NCBI GenBank assembly: GCA_951406725.2
Contig: OX597840.1
Span: 23,870,001-23,934,000 of the forward strand
Reading direction: 5' to 3'
DNA length: 64,000 bases
Origin: Octopus vulgaris
Taxonomy: Eukaryota
How positions within the stretch are numbered: the first letter of the stretch is position 1; each line of letters begins with the position of its first letter. Below the pieces are notes generated by a model. It ran no database searches. It was given only the letters and a program-made list of their open reading frames with translations, and was not told the DNA's origin. This document shows positions 1 to 57,124 of the stretch, piece by piece. Made by a program: the position numbers and the translations under genes.

Positions 1-3000
1 TTTATATATATGTATATAAATATATACAAATTATATATATAATTATATATAATTTGTATATATTTATATACAAATATATAATTTGTATAGGTTTATATAC
101 GAATATATAATTTGTATACGTTTATATACATATATATAATTTGTATACATATATATAATTTGTATATATTTGTATACATATATATATAATTTGTATATAT
201 TTGTATATACAGATATATAATTTGTCTACCTATATATAATTTGTATATATTTGTATACATATATATAATTTGTATATATTTGTGTACATATATATAATTT
301 GAATATATATTTATATACATATATATATTTGTATATATTTATATACATATATATAATTTGTATATATTCATATACATATATATAATTTGTATATATTCCT
401 ATACACATATATAAGTTGTATATATTCATATACAAATATATAATTTGTATATATTTATATACATATATATAATTTGTATATATTTATATATATGTATATA
501 AATGTATACAAATTATATATATATAATTATATATAATTTGTATACATTTATATACAAATATATAATTTGTATACGTTTATATACAAATATATAATTTGTA
601 TACGTTTATATACATATATATATATAATTTGTATACATATATATAATTTGTATATATTTGTATACGGATATATAATGTGTATATATTTGTATACAGATAT
701 ATAATTTGTATATATTTGTATACAGATATATAATTTGTATATATTTATATTCATATATATAATTTGTATATATTTATATGCATATATATAATTTGTATAT
801 ATTCATATGCATATATATAATTTGTATATATTTATATACATATATATAATTTGTATATATTTGTATGCATATATATAATTTGTATATATCTATGTGCATA
901 CATATAATTTGTATATATTCATATGCATATGTATAATTTGTATATATTCATATGCATATATATAATTTGTATATATTCATATGCATGTATGTAAATTGTA
1001 GATATTCATATGCATGTATATAATTTGTAGATATTCATATGCATGTATATAATTTGTATATATTCATATACATATATATAATTTGTATATATTCATATAC
1101 ATATATATAATTTGTATATCTTCATATACATATATATAATTTGTATATCTTCATATACATATATATAATTTGTATATATTCATATACATATATGTAATTT
1201 GTATATCTTCATATACATATATATAATTTGTATATATTCATATACATTTATGTAATTTGTATATATACATATACATATATGTCATTTGTATATCTTCATA
1301 TTCATATATCTAATTTGTATATCTTCATATACATATATATAATTTGTATATATTCATATACATATATATAATTTGTATATATTCATATACATATATATAA
1401 TTTGTATATCTTCATATGCATATATATAATTTGTAGATATTCATATGCATTATATAACTTGTATATATTCATATACATATATAATTTGTATATATTCATA
1501 TACATATATATAATTTGTATATATTCATATACATATATATAATTTGTATATATTCATATACATATATATAATTTGTATATATTCATATACATATATATAA
1601 TTTGTATATATTCATATACATATATATAATTTGTATATATTCATATATATATATATAATTTGTATATCTTCATATACATACATATAATGTGTATATCTTC
1701 ATATACATAATTTGTATATCTTCATATACATATATATAATTTGTATATATTCATATATATATATATATATAATTTGTTCATATTCATATACATATATATA
1801 ATTTAGATATATTCATATACACATATATAATTTGTATATCTTCATATACATATATATAATTTGTATACATTTATTTACATATATATAATTTGTATATCTT
1901 CATATACATATATGTAATTTGTATATATTCATATACATATATGTAATTTGTATATCTTCATATACATATATGTAATTTGTATATCTTCATATACATATAT
2001 TTAAATTGGATATCTTCATATACATATATGTAATTTGTATATCTTCATATACATATAAATAATTTTTATATATTCATATACATATAATAATTTGTATATA
2101 TTCATATACATATATATAATTTGTATATATTCATATACATATATATAATTTGTATACATTTATTTACATATATATAATTTGTATATCTTTATATACATAT
2201 ATATAATTTGTATACATTTATATACATATATATAATTTGTATACATATATATAATTTGTATATATCTGTATACATATATATAATTTGTATATATTTGTAT
2301 ACATATATATAATTTGTATATATTTGTGTACATATATATAATTTGAATATATATTTATATACATATATATATTTGTATATATTCATATACATATATATAA
2401 TTTGTATATATTCATATACATATATATAAGTTGTATATATTCATATACATATATATAATTGTATATATTCATATACATATATATATTTATATACATTATA
2501 TAACTTGTATATATTCATATACATATATATAATTTGTATATATTCATATACATATATATATTTTATATATTCATATACATATATATATTGTATATATTCA
2601 TTTACATATATATAAGTTGGATATTTTCATATACATATATATAATTTGTATATATTCATATACAAATATATAATTTGTATATATTCATATACAAATATAT
2701 AATTTGTATAAATTCATATACATATATATAATTTGTATATATTTATATATATGTATATAAATATATACAAATTATATATATAATTATATATAATTTGTAT
2801 ATATTTATATACAAATATATAATTTGTATAGGTTTATATATGAATATATAATTTGTATACGTTTATATACATATATATAATTTGTATACATATATATAAT
2901 TTGTATATATTTGTATACAGATATATAATTTGTATACATATATATAATTTGTATATATTTGTATACATATATATAATTTGTATATATTCATATACATATA

Positions 3001-6000
3001 TATAATTTGTATATATTTATATACATATATATAATTTGTATATATTTATATACATATATATAATTTGTATATATTCATATACATATATATAATTTGCATA
3101 TATTCATATACAAATATATAATTTGTATATATTCATATACAAATATATAATTTGTATATATTCATATACAAATATATAATTTGTATATATTTATATACTT
3201 ATATATAATTTGTATATATTTATATACATATATATAATTTGTATATATTTATATATATGTATATAAATTTGTATACAAATTATATATATATAATTATATA
3301 TAATTTGTATACGTTTATATACAAATATATAATTTGTATACGTTTATATACAAATATATAATTTGTATACGTTTATATACATATATATATATAATTTGTA
3401 TACATATATATAATTTGTATATATGTGTATACGGATATATAATGTGTATATATTTGTATACAGATATATAATTTGTATATATTTGTATACAGATATATAA
3501 TTTGTATATATTTATATTCATATATATAATTTGTATATATTTATATGCATATATATAATTTGTATATATTGATATGCATATATATAATTTGTATATATTT
3601 ATATACATATATATAATTTGTATATATTTGTATGCATATATATAATTTGTATATATCTATGTGCATACATATAATTTGTATATATTCATATGCATATGTA
3701 TAATTTGTATATATTCATATGCATATATATAATTTGTATATATTCATATGCATGTATGTAAATTGTAGATATTCATATGCATGTATATAATTTGTAGATA
3801 TTCATATGCATGTATATAATTTGTATATATTCATATACATATATATAATTTGTATATATTCATATACATATAAGTAATTTGTATAACTTCATATACATAT
3901 ATGTAATTTGTATATCTTCATATACATATATATAATTTGTATATATTCATATACATTTATGTAATTTGTATATATACATATACATATATGTCATTTGTAT
4001 ATCTTCATATTCATATATCTAATTTGTATATATTCATATACATATATGTAACTTGTATATCTTCATATACATATATGTAATTTGTATATCTTCATATACA
4101 TATGTTTGATTTGGATATCTTCATATACATCTATGTAATTTGTATATATTCATATACATATATATAACTTGTATATATTCATATACATATATATAATTTG
4201 TAGATATTCATATGCATGTATATAATTTGTATATATTCATATACATATATATAATTTGTATATATTCATATATATATATATTTTGTATATATACATATAC
4301 ATATATTTAATTTGTATATCTTCATATACATATATATAATTTGTATATCTTCATATACATATATATAATTTGTATATCTTCATATACATATATATAATTT
4401 GTATATCTTCATATACATATAAATAATTTGTATATCTTCATATACGTATATATAATTTGTATATCTTCATATACATACATATAATGTGTATATCTTCATA
4501 TACATATATATAATTTGTATATCTTCATATACATATATATAATTTGTATATATTCATATACATATATATATAATTTGTTCATATTCATATACATATATAT
4601 AATTTAGATATATTCATATACACATATATAATTTGTATATCTTCATATACTTATATATTGAAATTTGTATATCTTTATATACATATATGTAATTTGTATA
4701 TATTCATATACATATATGTAATTTGTATATATTCATATACATATATGTAATTTGTATATCTTCATATACATATATGTAAGTTGTATATCTTCATATACAT
4801 ATATATAATTTGTATATATTCATATACATTTATGTAATTTGTATATATACATATATGTCATTTGTATATATTCATATGCATATATGTAATTTGTATATAT
4901 ACATATACATATATATAATTTGTATATATACATATACATATATATAATTTGTATATATTCATATACATATATATAATTTGTATATATTCATATACATATA
5001 TATAATTTGTATATATTCATATACATATATATAATTTGTATATATTCATATACATATATATAATTTGTATATATTCATATACATATATATAATTTGTATA
5101 TATTCATATACATATATATAATTTGTATATATTCATATACATATATATAATTTGTATATATTCATATACATATATATAATTTGTATATATTCATATACAT
5201 ATATATAATTTGTATATATTCATATATACATATATATAATTTGTATATATTCATATACATATATATAATTTGTATATATTCATATACATATATATAATTT
5301 GTATATATTCATATACATATATATATAATTTGTATATATTCATATACATATATATAATTTGTATATATTCATATACATATATATAATTTGTATATATTCA
5401 TATACATATATATAATTTGTATATATTCATATACATATATATAATTTGTATATATTCATATACATATATATAATTTGTATATATTCATATACATATATAT
5501 AATTTGTATATATTCATATACATATATATAATTTGTATATATTCATATACATATATATAATTTGTATATATTCATATACATATATATATAACCTGTAAGT
5601 ATATATTCATATACATATATATATAACCTGTAAGTATATATTCATATACATATATATAATTTGTATATATTCATATACATATATATAATTTGTATATATT
5701 CATATACATATATATAATTTGTATATATTCATATACATATATATAAATTGTATATATTCACATACATATATATAACTTGTATATATTCACATACATATAT
5801 ATAACTTGTATATATTCACATACATATATATAACTTGTATATATTCACATACATATATATAACTTGTATATATTCACATACATATATATAAATTGTATAT
5901 ATTCACATACATATATATAACTTGTATATATTCATATACATATATATAATTTGTATATATTCATACACATATATATAATTTGTATATATTCATATACATA

Positions 6001-7805
6001 TATATAATTTGTATATATTCATATACATATATATAATTTATATATATTTATATACAAATATATAAATTGTATATATTTATATACATATATATAATTTGTA
6101 TATATTTATATACATATATATAATTTGTATAAATTTATATATATGTATATAAATATATACTAATTATATCTATATTTATATATATTTTGTATATATTTAT
6201 ATCGAAATATACAATTTGTATACGTTTATATACGTATTTATAATTTGTATACGTTTATATACATATATATAATTTGTATAAATTTATATACATATATATA
6301 TAATTTGTATACATTTATATACATATATATAATTTGTATACATTCATATACATATATATAATTTGTATATATATACATATATATAATTTGTATATATATA
6401 TAATTTGTATATATATACATATATATTCATATCATTATATATTGTATATATTCATATACATATATGTAACTTGTATATATTCATATACATATATGTAATT
6501 TGTTTATATTCATATACATATATGTAATTTGTATATCTTCATATACATATATGTAATTTGTATATCTTCATATACTTATACATAATTTGTAAATATTCAT
6601 ATACATTTATGTAATTTGTATATATTCATATACATATATATAATTTGTATATATTCATATACATATATATAATTTTGTATATATTTATATATATGTATAT
6701 AAATATATACAAATTATATATATAATTATATATATTTTGTATATATATATATACAAATATATAATTTGTATACGTTTATATGCATATATATAAGTTGTGT
6801 ACGTTTATATACATGTATATAATTTGTATACGTTTATATACATATATATAATTTGTATACGTTTATATACATATATATAATTTGTATACGTTTATATACA
6901 TATATATAATTTGTATACGTTTATATACATATATATAATTTGTATACGTTTATATACATATATATAATTTGTATACGTTTATATACATATATATAAGTTG
7001 CATACATTTATATACATATATATAATTTGTATACGTTTATATACATATATATAATTTGTATACGTTTATATACATATATATAATTTGTATACGTTTATAT
7101 ACATATATATAAGTTGCATACATTTATATACATATATATAATTTGTATACGTTTATATACATATATATAATTTGTATACGTTTATATACATATATATAAT
7201 TTGTATACGTTTATATACATATATATAATTTGTATACGTTTATATACATATATATAATTTGTATATTTATATACATATATAATTGCATACATTTATATAC
7301 ATATATATAATTTGTATACGTTTATATACATATATATAATTTGTATACGTTTATATACATATATATAATTTGTATACTTATATATAATTTGTATATATTT
7401 GTATGCATATATATAATTTGTATATATTTACATGCATATATACGGTTTGTATATATTTACATACATATATGCGGTTTGTATATATTTACATACATATATG
7501 CAATTTGCATATATTTACATTCCTATATGCAATTTGCATGTATTTACATACCTATATGCAATATGCATGTATTTACATACCTATATGCAATATGCATGAA
7601 TTTACATACCTATATACAATTTGCACGTATATACATACCTATATACAATTTGCATATATTTACATACCTATATACAATTTGCACGTATATACATACCTAT
7701 ATACAATTTGCATATATTTACATACCTATATACAATTTGCATATATTTACATACCTATATACAATTTGCATATATTTACATACCTATATACAATTTGCAT
7801 ATATA
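1..7805. repeat. AT-rich 29-bp satellite (consensus TATATATTCATATACATATATATAATTTG) with sub-variants and a ~2.7-kb higher-order duplication
   Basis: Period 29 read directly at 4981-5570. The variant CAATTTGCATATATTTACATACCTATATA occurs at 7500-7800. Diagnostic variant blocks at 1, ~893 and ~1281 recur at 2742, ~3661 and ~3990. Confidence 0.95.
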
Positions 7806-8324: not shown

Positions 8325-11260
8325 GGCTCTGGGCGCCATTGGGCTCACTGTCCACGGCTACGAGACAACGGTGAGGGCTATGGCGACCAGAGCTCGCTCT
8401 GGGCGCCATTGGGCTCACTGTCCACGGCTACGAGACAACGGTGAGGGCTATGGCGACCAGAGCTCGCTCTGGGCGCCATTGGGCTCACTGTCCACGGCTA
8501 CGAGACAACGGTGAGGGCTATGGCGACCAGAGCTCGCTCTGGGCGCCATTGGGCTCACTGTCCACGGCTACGAGACAACGGTGAGGGCTATGGCGACCAG
8601 AGCTCGCTCTGGGCGCCATTGGGCTCACTGTCCACGGCTACGAGACAACGGTGAGGGCTATGGCGACCAGAGCTCGCTCTGGGCGCCATTGGGCTCACTG
8701 TCCACGGCTACGAGACAACGGTGAGGGCTATGGCGACCAGAGCTCGCTCTGGGCGCCATTGGGCTCACTGTCCACGGCTACGAGACAACGGTGAGGGCTA
8801 TGGCGACCAGAGCTCGCTCTGGGCGCCATTGGGCTCACTGTCCACGGCTACGAGACAACGGTGAGGGCTATGGCGACCAGAGCTCGCTCTGGGCGCCATT
8901 GGGCTCACTGTCCACGGCTACGAGACAACGGTGAGGGCTATGGCGACCAGAGCTCGCTCTGGGCGCCATTGGGCTCACTGTCCACGGCTACGAGACAACG
9001 GTGAGGGCTATGGCGACCAGAGCTCGCTCTGGGCGCCATTGGGCTCACTGTCCACGGCTACGAGACAACGGTGAGGGCTATGGCGACCAGAGCTCGCTCT
9101 GGGCGCCATTGGGCTCACTGTCCACGGCTACGAGACAACGGTGAGGGCTATGGCGACCAGAGCTCGCTCTGGGCGCCATTGGGCTCACTGTCCACGGCTA
9201 CGAGACAACGGTGAGGGCTATGGCGACCAGAGCTCGCTCTGGGCGCCATTGGGCTCACTGTCCACGGCTACGAGACAACGGTGAGGGCTATGGCGACCAG
9301 AGCTCGCTCTGGGCGCCATTGGGCTCACTGTCCACGGCTACGAGACAACGGTGAGGGCTATGGCGACCAGAGCTCGCTCTGGGCGCCATTGGGCTCACTG
9401 TCCACGGCTACGAGACAACGGTGAGGGCTATGGCGACCAGAGCTCGCTCTGGGCGCCATTGGGCTCACTGTCCACGGCTACGAGACAACGGTGAGGGCTA
9501 TGGCGACCAGAGCTCGCTCTGGGCGCCATTGGGCTCACTGTCCACGGCTACGAGACAACGGTGAGGGCTATGGCGACCAGAGCTCGCTCTGGGCGCCATT
9601 GGGCTCACTGTCCACGGCTACGAGACAACGGTGAGGGCTATGGCGACCAGAGCTCGCTCTGGGCGCCATTGGGCTCACTGTCCACGGCTACGAGACAACG
9701 GTGAGGGCTATGGCGACCAGAGCTCGCTCTGGGCGCCATTGGGCTCACTGTCCACGGCTACGAGACAACGGTGAGGGCTATGGCGACCAGAGCTCGCTCT
9801 GGGCGCCATTGGGCTCACTGTCCACGGCTACGAGACAACGGTGAGGGCTATGGCGACCAGAGCTCTGCTCTGGGCGCCATTGGGCTCACTGTCCACGGCT
9901 ACGAGACAACGGTGAGGGCTATGGCGACCAGAGCTCGCTCTGGGCGCCATTGGGCTCACTGTCCACGGCTACGAGACAACGGTGAGGGCTATGGCGACCA
10001 GAGCTCGCTCTGGGCGCCATTGGGCTCACTGTCCACGGCTACGAGACAACGGTGAGGGCTATGGCGACCAGAGCTCGCTCTGGGCGCCATTGGGCTCACT
10101 GTCCACGGCTACGAGACAACGGTGAGGGCTATGGCGACCAGAGCTCGCTCTGGGCGCCATTGGGCTCACTGTCCACGGCTACGAGACAACGGTGAGGGCT
10201 ATGGCGACCAGAGCTCGCTCTGGGCGCCATTGGGCTCACTGTCCACGGCTACGAGACAACGGTGAGGGCTATGGCGACAGAGCTCGCTCTGGGCGCCATT
10301 GGGCTCACTGTCCACGGCTACGAGACAACGGTGAGGGCTATGGCGACCAGAGCTCGCTCTGGGCGCCATTGGGCTCACTGTCCACGGCTACGAGACAACG
10401 GTGAGGGCTATGGCGACCAGAGCTCGCTCTGGGCGCCATTGGGCTCACTGTCCACGGCTACGAGACAACGGTGAGGGCTATGGCGACCAGAGCTCGCTCT
10501 GGGCGCCATTGGGCTCACTGTCCACGGCTACGAGACAACGGTGAGGGCTATGGCGACCAGAGCTCGCTCTGGGCGCCATTGAAAAAGGCTCACTGTCCAC
10601 GGCTACGAGACAACGGTGAGGGCTATGGCGACCAGAGCTCGCTCTGGGCGCCATTGGGCTCACTGTCCACGGCTACGAGACAACGGTGAGGGCTATGGCG
10701 ACCAGAGCTCGCTCTGGGCGCCATTGGGCTCACTGTCCACGGCTACGAGACAACGGTGAGGGCTATGGCGACCAGAGCTCGCTCTGGGCGCCATTGGGCT
10801 CACTGTCCACGGCTACGAGACAACGGTGAGGGCTATGGCGACCAGAGCTCGCTCTGGGCGCCATTGGGCTCACTGTCCACGGCTACGAGACAACGGTGAG
10901 GGCTATGGCGACCAGAGCTCGCTCTGGGCGCCATTGGGCTCACTGTCCACGGCTACGAGACAACGGTGAGGGCTATGGCGACCAGAGCTCGCTCTGGGCG
11001 CCATTGGGCTCACTGTCCACGGCTACGAGACAACGGTGAGGGCTATGGCGACCAGAGCTCGCTCTGGGCGCCATTGGGCTCACTGTCCACGGCTACGAGA
11101 CAACGGTGAGGGCTATGGCGACCAGAGCTCGCTCTGGGCGCCATTGGGCTCACTGTCCACGGCTACGAGACAACGGTGAGGGCTATGGCGACCAGAGCTC
11201 GCTCTGGGCGCCATTGGGCTCACTGTCCACGGCTACGAGACAACGGTGAGGGCTATGGCG
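8325..11260. repeat. 70-bp GC-rich (45/70 GC, 6 CpG per unit) imperfect-palindromic satellite, ~42 near-identical copies
   Basis: Unit GGGCTCACTGTCCACGGCTACGAGACAACGGTGAGGGCTATGGCGACCAGAGCTCGCTCTGGGCGCCATT. Only rare indels (~9866, ~10278, ~10582). Confidence 0.97.
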
Positions 11261-25852: not shown

Positions 25853-25959
25853 GTCACATGACGCACCTTACTTCCGGCTTGTCACGTTTCCTCGATTCTT
25901 TGGAGACGAAATCGAAAGTAAATAAATATTTATTTATTTATTAAGCATCAGGGGTAAGT
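25853..25959 (+). promoter_or_regulatory. Putative promoter and non-coding first exon of ZNF2; splice donor at 25954
   Basis: GTCACATGAC (E-box/CLEAR-like) at 25853, ACTTCCGG (ETS) at 25870, GGG|GTAAGT donor. Matching acceptor TTCTTTTTTATTTCAG| at 29786. Conserved in the paralogue. Confidence 0.6.
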
Positions 25960-26307: not shown

Positions 26308-26784
26308 CAGCACTTGGCATCTTTATTTAGGAGCCTTTAATTGTATAACCACATGAATAATATTTTTCTATATGAATAATATTTTCGTCTTATGACTAAT
26401 TCGTCTTTTGTGCTGGGCACCTGGTAGTAAATAATATTACTACCCTTCTTGTTTATATTCGCATACTACATGATGAATTTATTCGTAAAATTCTTCCCGG
26501 CATCCCCGTGTAAATTTTGCGTCTGCGCAGAGATTTTAAAAGTTAAGATCTGCTAGTAGTCGGGTTTAACATATAGCCCCACATCGCTGCGGACCTCGAT
26601 TAAATTCAGGCGACTCGCTGATGAAGCCAGCCTTAGCAAACATATTCTGTGTTTTGCTAGAAAGAAGCAGAAACCGCGGTACGAGTTGTTAAAATTATCG
26701 GTAAACGTTTTTGATTTTCACTCTCGATAAATTCATCCCCTTTTTGTGTTCCCAGCACTTGGCATCTTTATTTAGGAGCCTTTA

Positions 26785-26792
<8 letters not shown>
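26308..26792 (+). mobile_element. 445-bp retrozyme/Penelope-pLTR-like insertion with 40-bp terminal redundancy
   Basis: CAGCACTTGGCATCTTTATTTAGGAGCCTTTAATTGTATA at 26308 and 26753. Contains a hammerhead. Absent from the paralogous (TA)n site at ~40570. Confidence 0.75.
26611..26688 (+). ncRNA. Type-I hammerhead ribozyme, predicted cleavage after GUA (26681)
   Basis: CGACTCG-CTGATGA-[stem II with TAGCAAA/TTTGCTA]-GAAAC-CGCG-GT-A-CGAGTTG. 7-bp stem I, intact core, palindromic stem III ACCGCGGT. Confidence 0.75.
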
Positions 26793-26825
<33 letters not shown>

Positions 26826-27310
26826 GTTTTTACGAATGCACATATATTTATATAGACGTTTTAACTTAGTATTTTTCCATTTTTTGTGGGGGGGGGGCAT
26901 ATATATATTCATTTTTTGTATATGCGTGTGTATGTATGCGTATATAAACATGTGCGGGTATGTACATATATGGGCGTGTGTGTGTGTATGAGTGCATAGG
27001 GGCATGTCCGTATATGAACGTGGTTTTTATGCTTTGTATACTTCCTTATGTTTTTTTTCTGTTACCTTTAACCATGGTTTTTCTTGTGTTTGTGCGTATA
27101 TAGACGTATGTATGAACTTTTACGGTACGCATGTGTGTGTGTATGAGGTTGTATATATATGCGTATATATTTGGCGAAAAATGCGAGTGAAGATGTGTAT
27201 GTTTCCATAGTGACGTATAAGTACGCACGTGGGTTTTCGCGCGCAGAATTATAATACAGTAATTTCCCTTTATATAACGGTATTTTTTCATAGCGTTTTT
27301 TCAGATGGCC

Positions 27311-27373
27311 AGATAACCGAAGAGATGGTGTTGTGGATTTCCACTTCGGCATCTGAAACTCAGAGTTTTATCT
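27311..27373 (+). ncRNA. Type-I hammerhead-like motif (core CCGAAGA)
   Basis: AGATAA-CCGAAGA-GATG..GTGGA tt TCCAC..CATC-T-GAAAC-TCAGA-GT-T-TTATCT. 6-bp stem I. The paralogue at 41111-41160 lost the 3' part through an 18-bp deletion. Confidence 0.55.
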
Positions 27374-27879
27374 TGACTATTGAGTAAATGTAACATATTA
27401 TTTTATAGATAAATTTCCTCTATTTACATAATATTGAGGTCTCTTTCTTTCATTTGTTATCTTACCGTTTTACCGATATATATATATATATGTATATATA
27501 TATAGGTCCCGGGTTGAGTCGGGGTTAACCACAGTAAATAAGAGAGTAATTAGTAATAAAGTAAACATACACTCATACATACATACATACATACATACAT
27601 ACATACATACATACATACACACACACATACATACATACACACATACATACATACACACACATACATACATATACATACATACACACACACACACATACAC
27701 ACACACACAGTATTGAAGCTTGAGAACAATCAGATACATTTGCAACACATCTGTTGAAAATATTATTGTTCACACACATACATATACATATATACATACA
27801 GACAGATAGACACACACACACACACATGATCCAGCATGGCCACAACCTCAAGGCTGAAACATATAAAAGAATAACAGAA

Positions 27880-28245
27880 TATAAATGTGTGCAAAGTACA
27901 AGAAATATTAATGCAGTATATGGGGATTGGACAATAAGCGTAAGGCAGTGTCAATGGTGGTTCCAGAAATCCCGAGCCATAAACTACAGCCTAGAAGACG
28001 AGCCTCATCCTGAAAGATCTGTAGAACTCGACAAGGACATCCTGAAAACCCTGGTGGAACAAAATATCATCGTAACTGTTGAGGAACTAGCAGAGAAGCT
28101 TGGATTTGGTCATTCAACCATTCATTGACACCTGTGTGCTATCGGAAAAGTCAGCAAATTGGGTCAATGGGTTCCTCACGAACTTTCCGAGTCTAATTGC
28201 ATGCAGAGAGTGAATGTATGCTTTTCTTTGCTGTCATATCTCACC
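27880..28245 (+). mobile_element. Mariner transposase relic
   Basis: WFQK...SLEDEPH...VEELAEKLG...GKVSKLGQWVPHEL, with a stop at 28126-28128. Confidence 0.85.
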
Positions 28246-30364: not shown

Positions 30365-32230
30365 ATGGAAAATGAATTACGTGATAATGAGGTTAATTGT
30401 AATACACAGTCGTTAAGGATTGATTTTACTGAAGATGAAACAGAAGAAGAAGAGAAAACATCATTTCACTGTGATGTCTGCAACAAGTCCTTCTTTCTCA
30501 AAGATGAACAGACGATTCACAAATGTTTCCATGCAGGAGAGGATCTCTATCGCTGTGACATCTGTGGTAAATCATTCTCTGAAAAGGTTCGTTTGACCAC
30601 ACATAAACACATTCACACAGGTGTCGAGCCGTATCGCTGTAACACCTGTGGTAAATCATTCTCTAAGAATCACCACTTAACTACTCACAAATACATTCAT
30701 ACAGGAGAGAAACCTTATCAGTGTGATATCTGTGGTAAATCATACTTTAGAAATAGCGACCTAACCACTCACAAACGTATTCATACAGGAGAGAAACCAT
30801 TTCATTGTGATATCTGTGGTAAATCATTCTCTAAAAATAGTCAGTTAATTGAACACAAACGTATTCATACAGGAGAGAAACCATATCATTGTGATATCTG
30901 TGGTAAATCATTCTCTCAAAATCACCACTTAACCACTCACAAATACATTCACACAGGAGAGAAACCTTATCAGTGTGATATCTGTGGTAAATCATTCTCT
31001 CGAAATCATTACTTAACTACTCACAAATACATTCACACAGGAGAGAAACCTTATCAGTGTGATATCTGTGGTAAATCATTCTCTAGAAATAGCGACCTAA
31101 CCACTCACAAAAACATTCACACAGGAGAGAAACCATATCAGTGTGATATCTGTGGTAAATCATTCTCTCAACGTAGTCAGTTAATTAAACACAAACGTAT
31201 TCATACAGGAGAGAAACCTTATCATTGTGATATCTGTGGTAAATCATTCTCTCAAAATCACCACTTAACTACTCACAAATACCTTCACACAGGAGAGAAA
31301 CCTTATCACTGTGATATCTGTGGTAAATCATTCTCTCGAAATCATCATTTAATTACTCATAAGCGCATTCATACAGGTGAGAAACCCTATCCCTGTAATA
31401 TTTGCGGTAAATCTTTTTCTCAAAGTTACCACTTGAGTAAACACAAACGTATTCATACGGGAGAGAAACCATATCATTGTGATATCTGTGGTAAATCATT
31501 CCCTGGAAATAGTGAGCTAACCACTCACAAACGTATTCATACAGGAGAGAAACCATATCATTGTGATACCTGTGGAGAATCATTCTCTCAAAATAACCAC
31601 TTAACTACTCATAAATACATTCACACAGGAGAGAAACCTTATCACTGTGATATCTGTGGTAAATCATTCTCTCAAAATCACCACTTAACTGCTCACAAAT
31701 ACATTCACACAGGAGAGAAACCATATCAGTGTGATATCTGTGGTAAATCATTCTCTTTAAATCATCTCTTAGCTAAACACAAACGTATTCATACAGGAGA
31801 GAAACCTTATCATTGTGATATCTGTGGAGAATCATTCTCTCAAAATCAAAACTTAACTAAACACAAATACATTCACACAGGAGAGAAACCTTATCATTGT
31901 GATATCTGTGGTAAATCATTCTCTGAACGTAGTCAGTTAATTAAACACAAACGTATTCATACAGGAGAGAAACCTTATCATTGTGATATATGTGGTAAAT
32001 CATTCTCTCAGAATCACCACTTAACTACTCACAAATACATTCACACAGGAGAGAAGCCTTATCACTGTGATATCTGTGGTAAATCATTCTCTCAGAATCA
32101 CCACTTAACTAAACACAAATACATTCACACAGGAGAGAAACCTTATCAGTGTGATATCTGTGGTAAATCATTCTCTGAGAATCAAAACCTAACTAAACAC
32201 AAATACATTCACACAGGAGAGAAAACATAG
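30365..32230 (+). CDS. C2H2 poly-zinc-finger gene 2 (621 aa, 21 fingers, short acidic N-terminus)
   Basis: Single ORF with tandem TGEKP-linked fingers. No KRAB, SET or BTB domain recognisable. Confidence 0.92.
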
Positions 32231-40220: not shown

Positions 40221-40576
40221 TATTATATATATATGTATATATATTGGAGAGGAATACGATCTGATTGAAGACGTTGTATAGCAAATACTGCGATTTATAG
40301 AAATGCCGTAGTTTGTTGTGTATTGATGTAGGCTGGGCAGGAATGGAGTGGCGGTCAATCGGAATAGCGGATAACGTTATCAGCCGGTTATTGTTATCAA
40401 AATTAATTGGTTCAGACTTTATATTTGTTTAACGTCATCTGTTAGGTGTTGGCCAATGCTGTACGGAAATGATCACAATAAGCGGCTTCCACTATATATA
40501 TGATTCTTGTGAAATTCCTTTGTAATCGCCAACTTTTGTGTGTGTGTATGTGCATATATATGTATATACATATATA

Positions 40577-40621
<45 letters not shown>

Positions 40622-49708: not shown

Positions 49709-51247
49709 CCTATCTATCCATTTGTCTATATAGAAATATAGTGAAATTTCCATTGTTGAAGTTCTACTCATTAAGTTTCCTCAATATCTTTTACTGTTTT
49801 TCTCTTATTTCAGAATATCAGAACAATTCAAGTGTTTAAGAATATCTGACTTCAGTTCTCTCATCAATTTTGTGTGTTAAAGACTAATGGAAGATACCCA
49901 AAACAAACACCTTCATTTTTGTATTAATCTCTGCAGAATTACAGGGAAATATTTCTTGTGAATTGAGATTGAGAACAAAATCTGTCCACTTCACAATTAG
50001 GAATTTATTCAAAATGATTTGATATTCAAATGAAAATTGGAGAAAATTTACCTTGAAAATTGGAGAAATTGAATTTCATGGTTATTCCAGTAATGATCTA
50101 CAAAAAAGTTGGAGAAAATTTACCTTTTAAATGTGAAATAAAAATTCATAGTTATACCTATTTCTATTTCTTTACTACCCACAATGGGCTAAACACAGAG
50201 GGGGACAAACAAGGACAGACGACTGGATTAAGTCGATTACATCGACCCCAGTGCGTAACTGGTACTTATTTAATCGACCCCAAAAGGATGAAAGGCAAAA
50301 TCGACCTTGGTGGAATTTGAACTCAGAACGTAAAGGCAAACGAAATACTGCCAAGCATTTCGCCCGGCATGCTAACGTTTCTGCCAGCTCGGCGCCTACT
50401 AGAGGTGATGTTAAATATCTTATGAAAATATCTAGCTGGGAAAGTTTAAGAACTGATTTATATTTTCGGTCAAGAGATGGCAAAGCCGTTACACCAGTGT
50501 GATGTATGTAAAAAGACTTTCTCTCGTGGAGGTAACCTTGCTACCCACAAACGTATCCATACAGGAGACAAACCCCATCACTGCGATATCTGTGGGAAAT
50601 CATTCTCTAGAGCAAGTACTTTAACTACACACAAATATATTCATACTGGAGAGAAGCCATATCGCTGTGATATCTGTGGTAGATTATTCTCTGTTGACAG
50701 TAGCTTAACTCGACACAAACGTATTCATACGGGAGATAAACCATATCGGTGTGATATCTGTGACAAGTCTTTCTCAGATGCAGGTAGCTTAACTGCTCAC
50801 AAACGATTCCATACAGGTGAGAAGCCCTATCACTGTGATGTCTGTGGTAAATCATTCTCTCAGAGAGGTACCTTATCTACACACATGTTTATTCGCACAG
50901 GAGAGAAAAAATATCACTGTGATATCTGTGGTATGTTGTTCTCACGCAGGTTTCACTTGACTCGACACAAACTCACCCACACAGGTGAGAGATCGTACAG
51001 CTGTGATATTTGTGGAAAATCATTCTCTGAAAGTAGCATCATAATTAAGCACAAACGTGTTCATACCGGAGAAAAACCGTATCACTGTGATATCTGTGGG
51101 AAATCATTCTCAGGGGGAAGTACCCTGACTATTCACAAATGGATTCACTCAGGAGAGAAACCATATCACTGTGACATTTGTGGTAAATCTTTCTCTGCAA
51201 GTTTTGGTTTGACTAGACACAAACGAATTCATACAGGAGAAAAGCCG

Positions 51248-57124
<5,877 letters not shown>

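Follow-up and report, generated by a model that had tools for sequence, protein, structure and literature searches.

What is a short non-coding element with a self-cleaving ribozyme motif doing upstream of a zinc-finger gene in an octopus, and how did it get there? The element lies in a 64,000-nucleotide stretch of the Octopus vulgaris genome (contig OX597840.1, positions 23,870,001 to 23,934,000; hereafter the window), and its features are collected in Table 1. This young copy belongs to a repeat family, here called family A, whose 445-nt non-coding unit carries a hammerhead motif. Very probably it is a non-LTR retrozyme that moves as a non-autonomous passenger of Penelope-like elements (PLEs), and its position near the zinc-finger (ZNF) gene is probably incidental.

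Table 1. Features of the element and its surroundings, in window coordinates
Feature	Position	Strand	Remark
Complete insertion (family A, 1.09 units of 445 nt)	26308..26792	+	5' truncation near unit position 1; short-site 3' end (unit ~36-40)
40-nt redundancy, first copy	26308..26347	+	Unit 1-40
40-nt redundancy, second copy	26753..26792	+	Stops at the family's short 3' end (TTGTATA)
(TA)n target repeat	26789..26822	none
Conserved tail stem, 3' arm	26410..26420	+	Pairs with 26746-26758 in a circle or tandem
Conserved tail stem, 5' arm	26746..26758	+
Conserved 8-bp hairpin	26423..26444	+	Just before the long 3' ends
Family long 3' ends (unit 151 and 158)	26458..26465	+	Unused as an end in this copy
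TGCGTCTGCGCA motif	26518..26529	+	Common to families A, C and D
Type I hammerhead variant	26610..26689	+	Sequence reading; stems covary in sister families
Stem I, 8 bp with two G-U	26610-26617 paired with 26682-26689	+
Core CUGAUGA	26618-26624	+
Long stem II, A·A at base	26625-26669	+
GAAA	26670-26673	+
Palindromic stem III, ACCGCGGT	26673-26680	+
C2H2 zinc-finger ORF	30365..32230	+	Downstream host context
Paralogous site, empty	40561..40618	none

The two copies of the terminal redundancy are 100% identical and spaced by 445 nt, in agreement with the 40-bp redundancy and roughly 1.09 monomers described in the initial annotation. The redundancy exists because this copy is a short-site arm of 1.09 units, with an overshoot of 0.09; it is not a family terminus. 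Nor is it a target-site duplication (TSD), a reading we rejected since the paralogous (TA)n site near 40570 has neither the element nor the 40-mer, as had been noted before. The element is absent from all nine paralogous loci that could be read (the anchor missed two of eleven), so that it occupies one of the ten paralogous sites read. About 10 nt of target were lost on insertion, and there is no TSD. The copy diverges by 0.3-1.3% from its ten closest arms, which together with the empty paralogous sites bears out the proposal that the insertion is recent.

The hammerhead is predicted to cut after A26681 (26681/26682), at unit 374/375. The core and the palindromic stem III of the intact type I hammerhead first described are there, but stem I is 8 bp rather than 7 bp, and the motif is not a minimal one: its core halves lie 45 nt apart, and stem II has an internal loop, a distal helix and an A·A at its base. 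In our alignment, this position (10.1/11.1) is A·A in family A and G-C in the sister families. The three-helix type I core expected of a non-LTR retrozyme is present, with this variant at 10.1/11.1. The A·A, together with an extra C·A pair in stem II of a young subfamily of family A, is predicted to weaken stem II. Stem III of this copy is 2 bp.

The Rfam check proposed earlier returned no hammerhead in the element, whether at the gathering score or at E<=10. The isolated region is no more stably folded than shuffled sequences (z=-1.3), and its minimum-free-energy fold is not the hammerhead. A search for the core pattern gave 112 exact genome matches and a reversed control gave none. All three stems covary between families A, C and D, with 94.5% of cells paired and nine double-sided changes; none of 500 shuffles scored as high, a figure that covers only five sequences from three families and is not a probability, because the five are related. 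The core nucleotides are fixed, while N7 and H17 differ between subfamilies. Judged from these sequence comparisons, the motif is more than a chance match, given the 112 versus 0 matches and the covariation of its helices.

Several other hammerhead repeats occur in this genome. Families C (430 bp; L163-L187) and D (399 bp; L188-L207), both with a canonical G-C stem II base, and a degenerate family F (L129:2040-2310) are homologous to the element along the unit. Family B (L032-L052) has a tandem unit of ~350 bp and a small hammerhead whose stem II starts from A·G or A·A at its base; it gave 2781 first-look candidates, and following its minimal hammerhead led to no ORF. Inside the window, family E at 27243-27504 has a hammerhead that is degenerate, reading CCGAAGA at 27317; in L100, versions with an intact CTGAAGA form an inverted pair. 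Family E is older, because the paralog has it too.

A genome search with the element yielded at least 137 matches, from 40 of 1072 candidates scored, and a 20-mer from the family-A tail matched exactly 293 times. We mapped 68 loci and dropped one that was rearranged (L118), leaving 67 in set 1. The 40 further loci of set 2 were picked by the tail 20-mer, a choice biased towards loci with one long end or more and not against those with two. Copies are dispersed, in tandem arrays with a 445-bp period, or in head-to-head inverted pairs in (TA)n, and arm length ranges from 0.08 to 9.85 units. The unit has 37.5% GC, and its longest ATG ORF when tandemised is 28 aa. PLE fragments lie near some copies; none of the 107 loci (6 with only 1.5-kb flanks) has a PLE ORF attached in sense, and none has an RT plus GIY-YIG ORF between pseudo-LTRs (pLTRs). 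The earlier proposal of a mobile, multi-copy, tandem-forming ribozyme family is thus upheld by the 112 core matches and the arrays of up to 9.85 units, and two of the findings named as counting against it, a single-copy sequence and attachment of all copies to Penelope ORFs, were both looked for and are not what the genome holds. Two or more consecutive hammerhead units in an arm, the criterion for an active retrozyme locus, occur at 20/67 loci; the copy in the window holds one and therefore cannot release a monomer by itself.

Rare variants within insertions are present in all units of a locus in 14 cases (6 of which span both arms), in one unit in 79 and in some units in 6. The partially shared variants, as in L132 and also L131, point to later unequal exchange. 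A C>T change at 26413 (unit 106) is seen repeatedly, in single units of several insertions that are unrelated, and preserves a G-U pair in the tail stem; it is possibly a hotspot of RT error.

The ends of family-A insertions are highly ordered on one side only. The 3' ends sit at two fixed sites ~115 nt apart, one short (unit ~36-40) and one long (~147-159), and TA repeats adjoin 93/100 of them. The 5' ends are scattered round the unit (KS p=0.08). They are overrepresented near unit 423-12, in part because of the query start; an excess just past the cleavage site (6 versus 2.5 expected, p=0.04) is weak, and we do not rely on it. Permuted start points, which the initial annotation had anticipated, are therefore seen at the 5' ends and not at the 3' ends.

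Head-to-head inverted insertions make up 33/67 loci in set 1 and 22/40 in set 2, where end classes were read by hand, or 55/107 overall. Exactly one long end is found in 52 of these 55, two in one and none in two; if arms were independent, 13 insertions with two long ends would be expected where one is seen (p=8e-13). Set 1 alone has exactly one long end at 33/33 inverted loci. The same holds for 14 of 16 inverted insertions of sister family C, which include one double-long case, and no inverted arm appeared among 16 family-D loci, for whose selection the query stopped at the long site. A systematic search for tiny second arms in single-orientation copies gave a clear one only for L128.

The two arms of an insertion also share their sequence type. 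Opposite arms differ at 2/235 diagnostic sites, compared to 38% between insertions, and sites within insertions are concordant in 534/550 cases, where ~293 would be expected. Together with the long/short pairing, this concordance suggests that both target ends prime on one RNA template, which is probably a circle. Concordant arms would also be expected if only one source locus were active. A DNA fold-back in which one arm is copied from the other is ruled out, because the other arm extends further upstream than the long arm in 19/51 insertions. Cut linear monomers are likewise rejected as the template, since 80/101 arms traverse an intact cleavage site. In 12/51 cases versus 4.6 expected (p=0.002; a post hoc count that is partly ascertainment-biased), the long arm ends in unit 1-40, a little beyond the short site, as if it had met the second primer. 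The second site is passed by 47/51 arms, which requires strand displacement.

Family A thus carries the marks of PLE mobilization, namely 5'-truncated partial tandems, inverted 5' copies, a (TA)n target and no clear TSD. It also has the PLE 'tail', with two alternative 3' ends and an extension at one end only, at a length of ~115 nt instead of 30-40. Between the two 3' ends, a stem and a hairpin are kept in families A, C and D and in the degenerate fourth family, and the tail stem covaries across all four, with double-sided changes. We infer from this modelled structure that the stem and hairpin may form an RT recognition element. The circular family-A unit folds well as a whole (z=-4.0), and the hammerhead is not formed in that fold. 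The TGCGTCTGCGCA motif could be an internal promoter site.

Potential partners are present in the same genome, which has many intact 781-aa ORFs with an RT, matching just under the Pfam cut-off, and with GIY-YIG at the C terminus. These PLEs finish in (TA)n at either of two ends separated by 38 nt, and a second autonomous family has a 32-nt tail. At PLE loci L088 and L095, the inverted pair combines a long end with a short end. Minimal-hammerhead-like motifs occur in the 3' regions of autonomous PLEs. One young two-ORF PLE (L083:430-5672) has a 456-bp pLTR and, close to its 3' end, a minimal-hammerhead-like motif (U3-A8); we take its repeats to be CCAAT- and CRE-like. We scored 150 of 6136 GIY-YIG candidates, and blastn and nhmmer searches of PLE loci for an autonomous partner gave no similarity to the element in the PLE 3' ends sampled. 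The CxxxxCxxC linker of the 781-aa PLEs, compared to the description in PMC8557442, suggests a Neptune type. According to the text seen of PMC11167929, a PLE extends both target strands in vitro from two internal RNA sites bounding the tail, the start sites are alike between strands, the hammerhead is dispensable for insertion, and unprocessed RNA is the main substrate.

Taken together, these observations lead us to a model, to which we assign a probability of roughly two in three, in which a PLE RT/GIY-YIG protein acting in trans copies a probably circular 445-nt RNA into (TA)n by two-site priming. Loci with two or more hammerheads would be transcribed into RNA that cuts itself, the palindromic stem III likely serving to form dimers, and the product would be ligated to a circle; in the text seen of Li et al. 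(bioRxiv 10.64898/2026.07.22.740005), cleavage occurred in only one of nine retrozyme dimers. The PLE protein would bind the stem-plus-hairpin tail domain and nick both (TA)n strands. One target end would start reverse transcription at the long site, matching the ends seen at unit 151/158, and the other would start on the same template at the short site, unit ~36-40, or at a nearby TATA. Each arm would then run for a variable length through the uncut ribozyme, giving the 0.08 to 9.85 units of the genomic pattern, and the arms would be joined head to head or to the flank, as genomic copies are. Against this model stand the weakened stem II, the partially shared variants, the low cleavage rate of retrozyme dimers, the results of PMC11167929 on the hammerhead, on unprocessed RNA and on the start sites of the two strands, and the failure to find an autonomous partner by sequence among the PLE loci sampled.

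The template could instead be an uncut linear read-through of tandem arrays, copied as the same PLE passenger, with arrays lengthened later by unequal crossing-over and a hammerhead that is weak or dispensable. We think this unlikely, yet it deserves the most weight among the alternatives. It fits the preference for unprocessed RNA in vitro (PMC11167929, text seen in part), the A·A at the stem II base and the partially shared variants in L132 and L131, and unit-junction contigs are expected from tandem DNA or linear multimers too. However, where variants private to a locus occur in all its units and on both arms, a bottleneck of one unit is required. The fixed core nucleotides, in a motif whose N7 and H17 differ between subfamilies, and the covarying helices across A, C and D also count against this alternative. 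An improbable reading is that the unit is the detached pLTR of an autonomous PLE outside those sampled, and that its insertions are ordinary 5'-truncated PLE ends. All end features are indeed PLE-like, the GIY-YIG candidates scored are 150 of 6136, and Xenopus retrozymes are described as related to pLTRs (bioRxiv 10.64898/2026.07.22.740005, text seen in part); against it, the arms wrap into further units and not into unique upstream sequence, no ORF is attached in sense at any of the 107 loci (1.5-kb flanks only for 6), and the 3' ends of the PLE families seen have no similarity to the unit.

Could the copy nevertheless have been co-opted to cut or regulate the ZNF pre-mRNA? It has the same strand as the downstream C2H2 ORF and lies ~350 nt past a donor-like site at 25954 that is kept in paralogs, and its predicted hammerhead could possibly cut the transcript, as had been suggested. 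Nevertheless, co-option is highly improbable, because a copy present at 1/10 paralogous sites read and 0.3-1.3% from its ten closest arms is too recent for selection to be visible. Its one hammerhead has a stem III of 2 bp. No contig joint among the joints listed splices across the element, and the ZNF 5'UTR intron of the initial annotation is no more than a possibility. An exon-like stretch at 27306 was rejected as an exon, since it belongs to another repeat family. None of the sequencing runs that contain the unit is recorded as RNA; in those guessed to be RNA, individual contigs span the unit or bridge it: X6 with 475 nt (the unit plus 30), X2 with 455 nt, running through the cleavage site, and X3 with 382 nt. 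X1 and X2 have the three C5-array-type alleles. At 26504 and 26537, every one of these runs departs from the copy in the window and has another copy's alleles. Since circles, linear multimers and tandem DNA all predict junction-bridging contigs, these contigs do not discriminate among them. Related haplotypes are present in runs labelled as other organisms.

The neighbourhood is itself repetitive. The ZNF upstream region exists in 19 full-length copies on the same contig, including this locus, with 96-100% identity (G000:C27:23.77-24.35 Mb), which from their sequence are a recent cluster expansion, and in several paralogs the (TA)n site of this region received different insertions. The ZNF array at 50542-56982 comprises ~77 84-bp units with a 95% match. 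A transposase-like fragment at 27900-28230, absent from the paralog alignment, reads WVPHEL, presumably the mariner motif. Satellites with a 29-bp AT-rich unit (37-7804) and a 70-bp GC-rich unit (8326-11260, 99% match) also occur.

Returning to the two-site copying of a circular RNA, a broader reading is that small circular ribozyme RNAs, forming a superfamily with at least families A, C, D and F as members, parasitise the genome's PLE enzymes through the conserved, structured ~115-nt tail, that this tail positions two start sites for a PLE dimer, and that the cut ends each prime rolling-circle reverse transcription on the same circle. We offer this tentatively, as somewhat short of an even chance. 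If true, it would explain the inverted repeats and one-sided tails of PLEs generally, and it would be direct genomic evidence that retrozymes move from circles by PLE machinery; both retrozyme movement and the origin of tandem, inverted and tailed PLE insertions are stated as open in the literature as seen in part. Short, young and high in copy number, family A records an almost strict long/short pairing and one haplotype per insertion. It also provides a 445-nt substrate for circle templating and two-site priming in vitro, alongside the intact 781-aa PLE ORFs.

Retrozymes, their proposed PLE origin, the PLE tail and the two start sites are already in print, in sources seen in part. Our literature search, which covered neither supplements nor repeat libraries that may list family A, found no cephalopod retrozyme, and, again excluding supplements, no count of long/short end pairing; the main text of PMC13282606, as far as seen, does not contain 'ribozyme', 'hammerhead' or 'retrozyme'. 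Among systems known from partly seen texts, non-autonomous Chlamys elements such as MRC1 (PMC8557442) resemble family A as PLE passengers with head-to-tail insertions. These passengers generally resemble their autonomous partner at the 3' end, whereas no partner matches family A, and Chlamys mostly lack the canonical hammerhead that family A has in variant form. Minimal PLE hammerheads, by their description in what was seen of PMC4209133, share the type I topology and a palindromic stem III suited to dimers. Family A differs in its 8-bp stem I, in the internal loop and distal helix of stem II, and in lacking the G10.1-C11.1 pair (register from families C and D), which is highly conserved according to Cervera 2014 (PMC4209133).

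Neptune/Naiad-type PLEs, in the portions seen of PMC8557442 and PMC11167929, share with family A the 5' truncation, partial tandems, inverted 5' copy, one-end tail, (TA)n preference and a hammerhead upstream of the ends, but family A has no RT or GIY-YIG ORF. Its tail is ~110-120 nt and structured, whereas published tails measure 30-40 bp and those of the autonomous PLEs here 32-38 nt. Metazoan non-LTR retrozymes (PMC7229834; bioRxiv 10.64898/2026.07.22.740005), as far as these sources were seen, share with family A a non-coding, low-GC tandem unit in the 150-450 bp range, a type I hammerhead with a palindromic stem III, monomers to multimers, a well-folded circular unit and PLEs in the same genome. 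Family A is set apart by its long stem II, its A·A base and the lack of a pLTR homolog among the PLE loci sampled. No retrozyme description of this kind turned up in the literature as seen: family A shows the marks of PLE integration directly, in its two fixed ends, its inverted arms and its (TA)n target.
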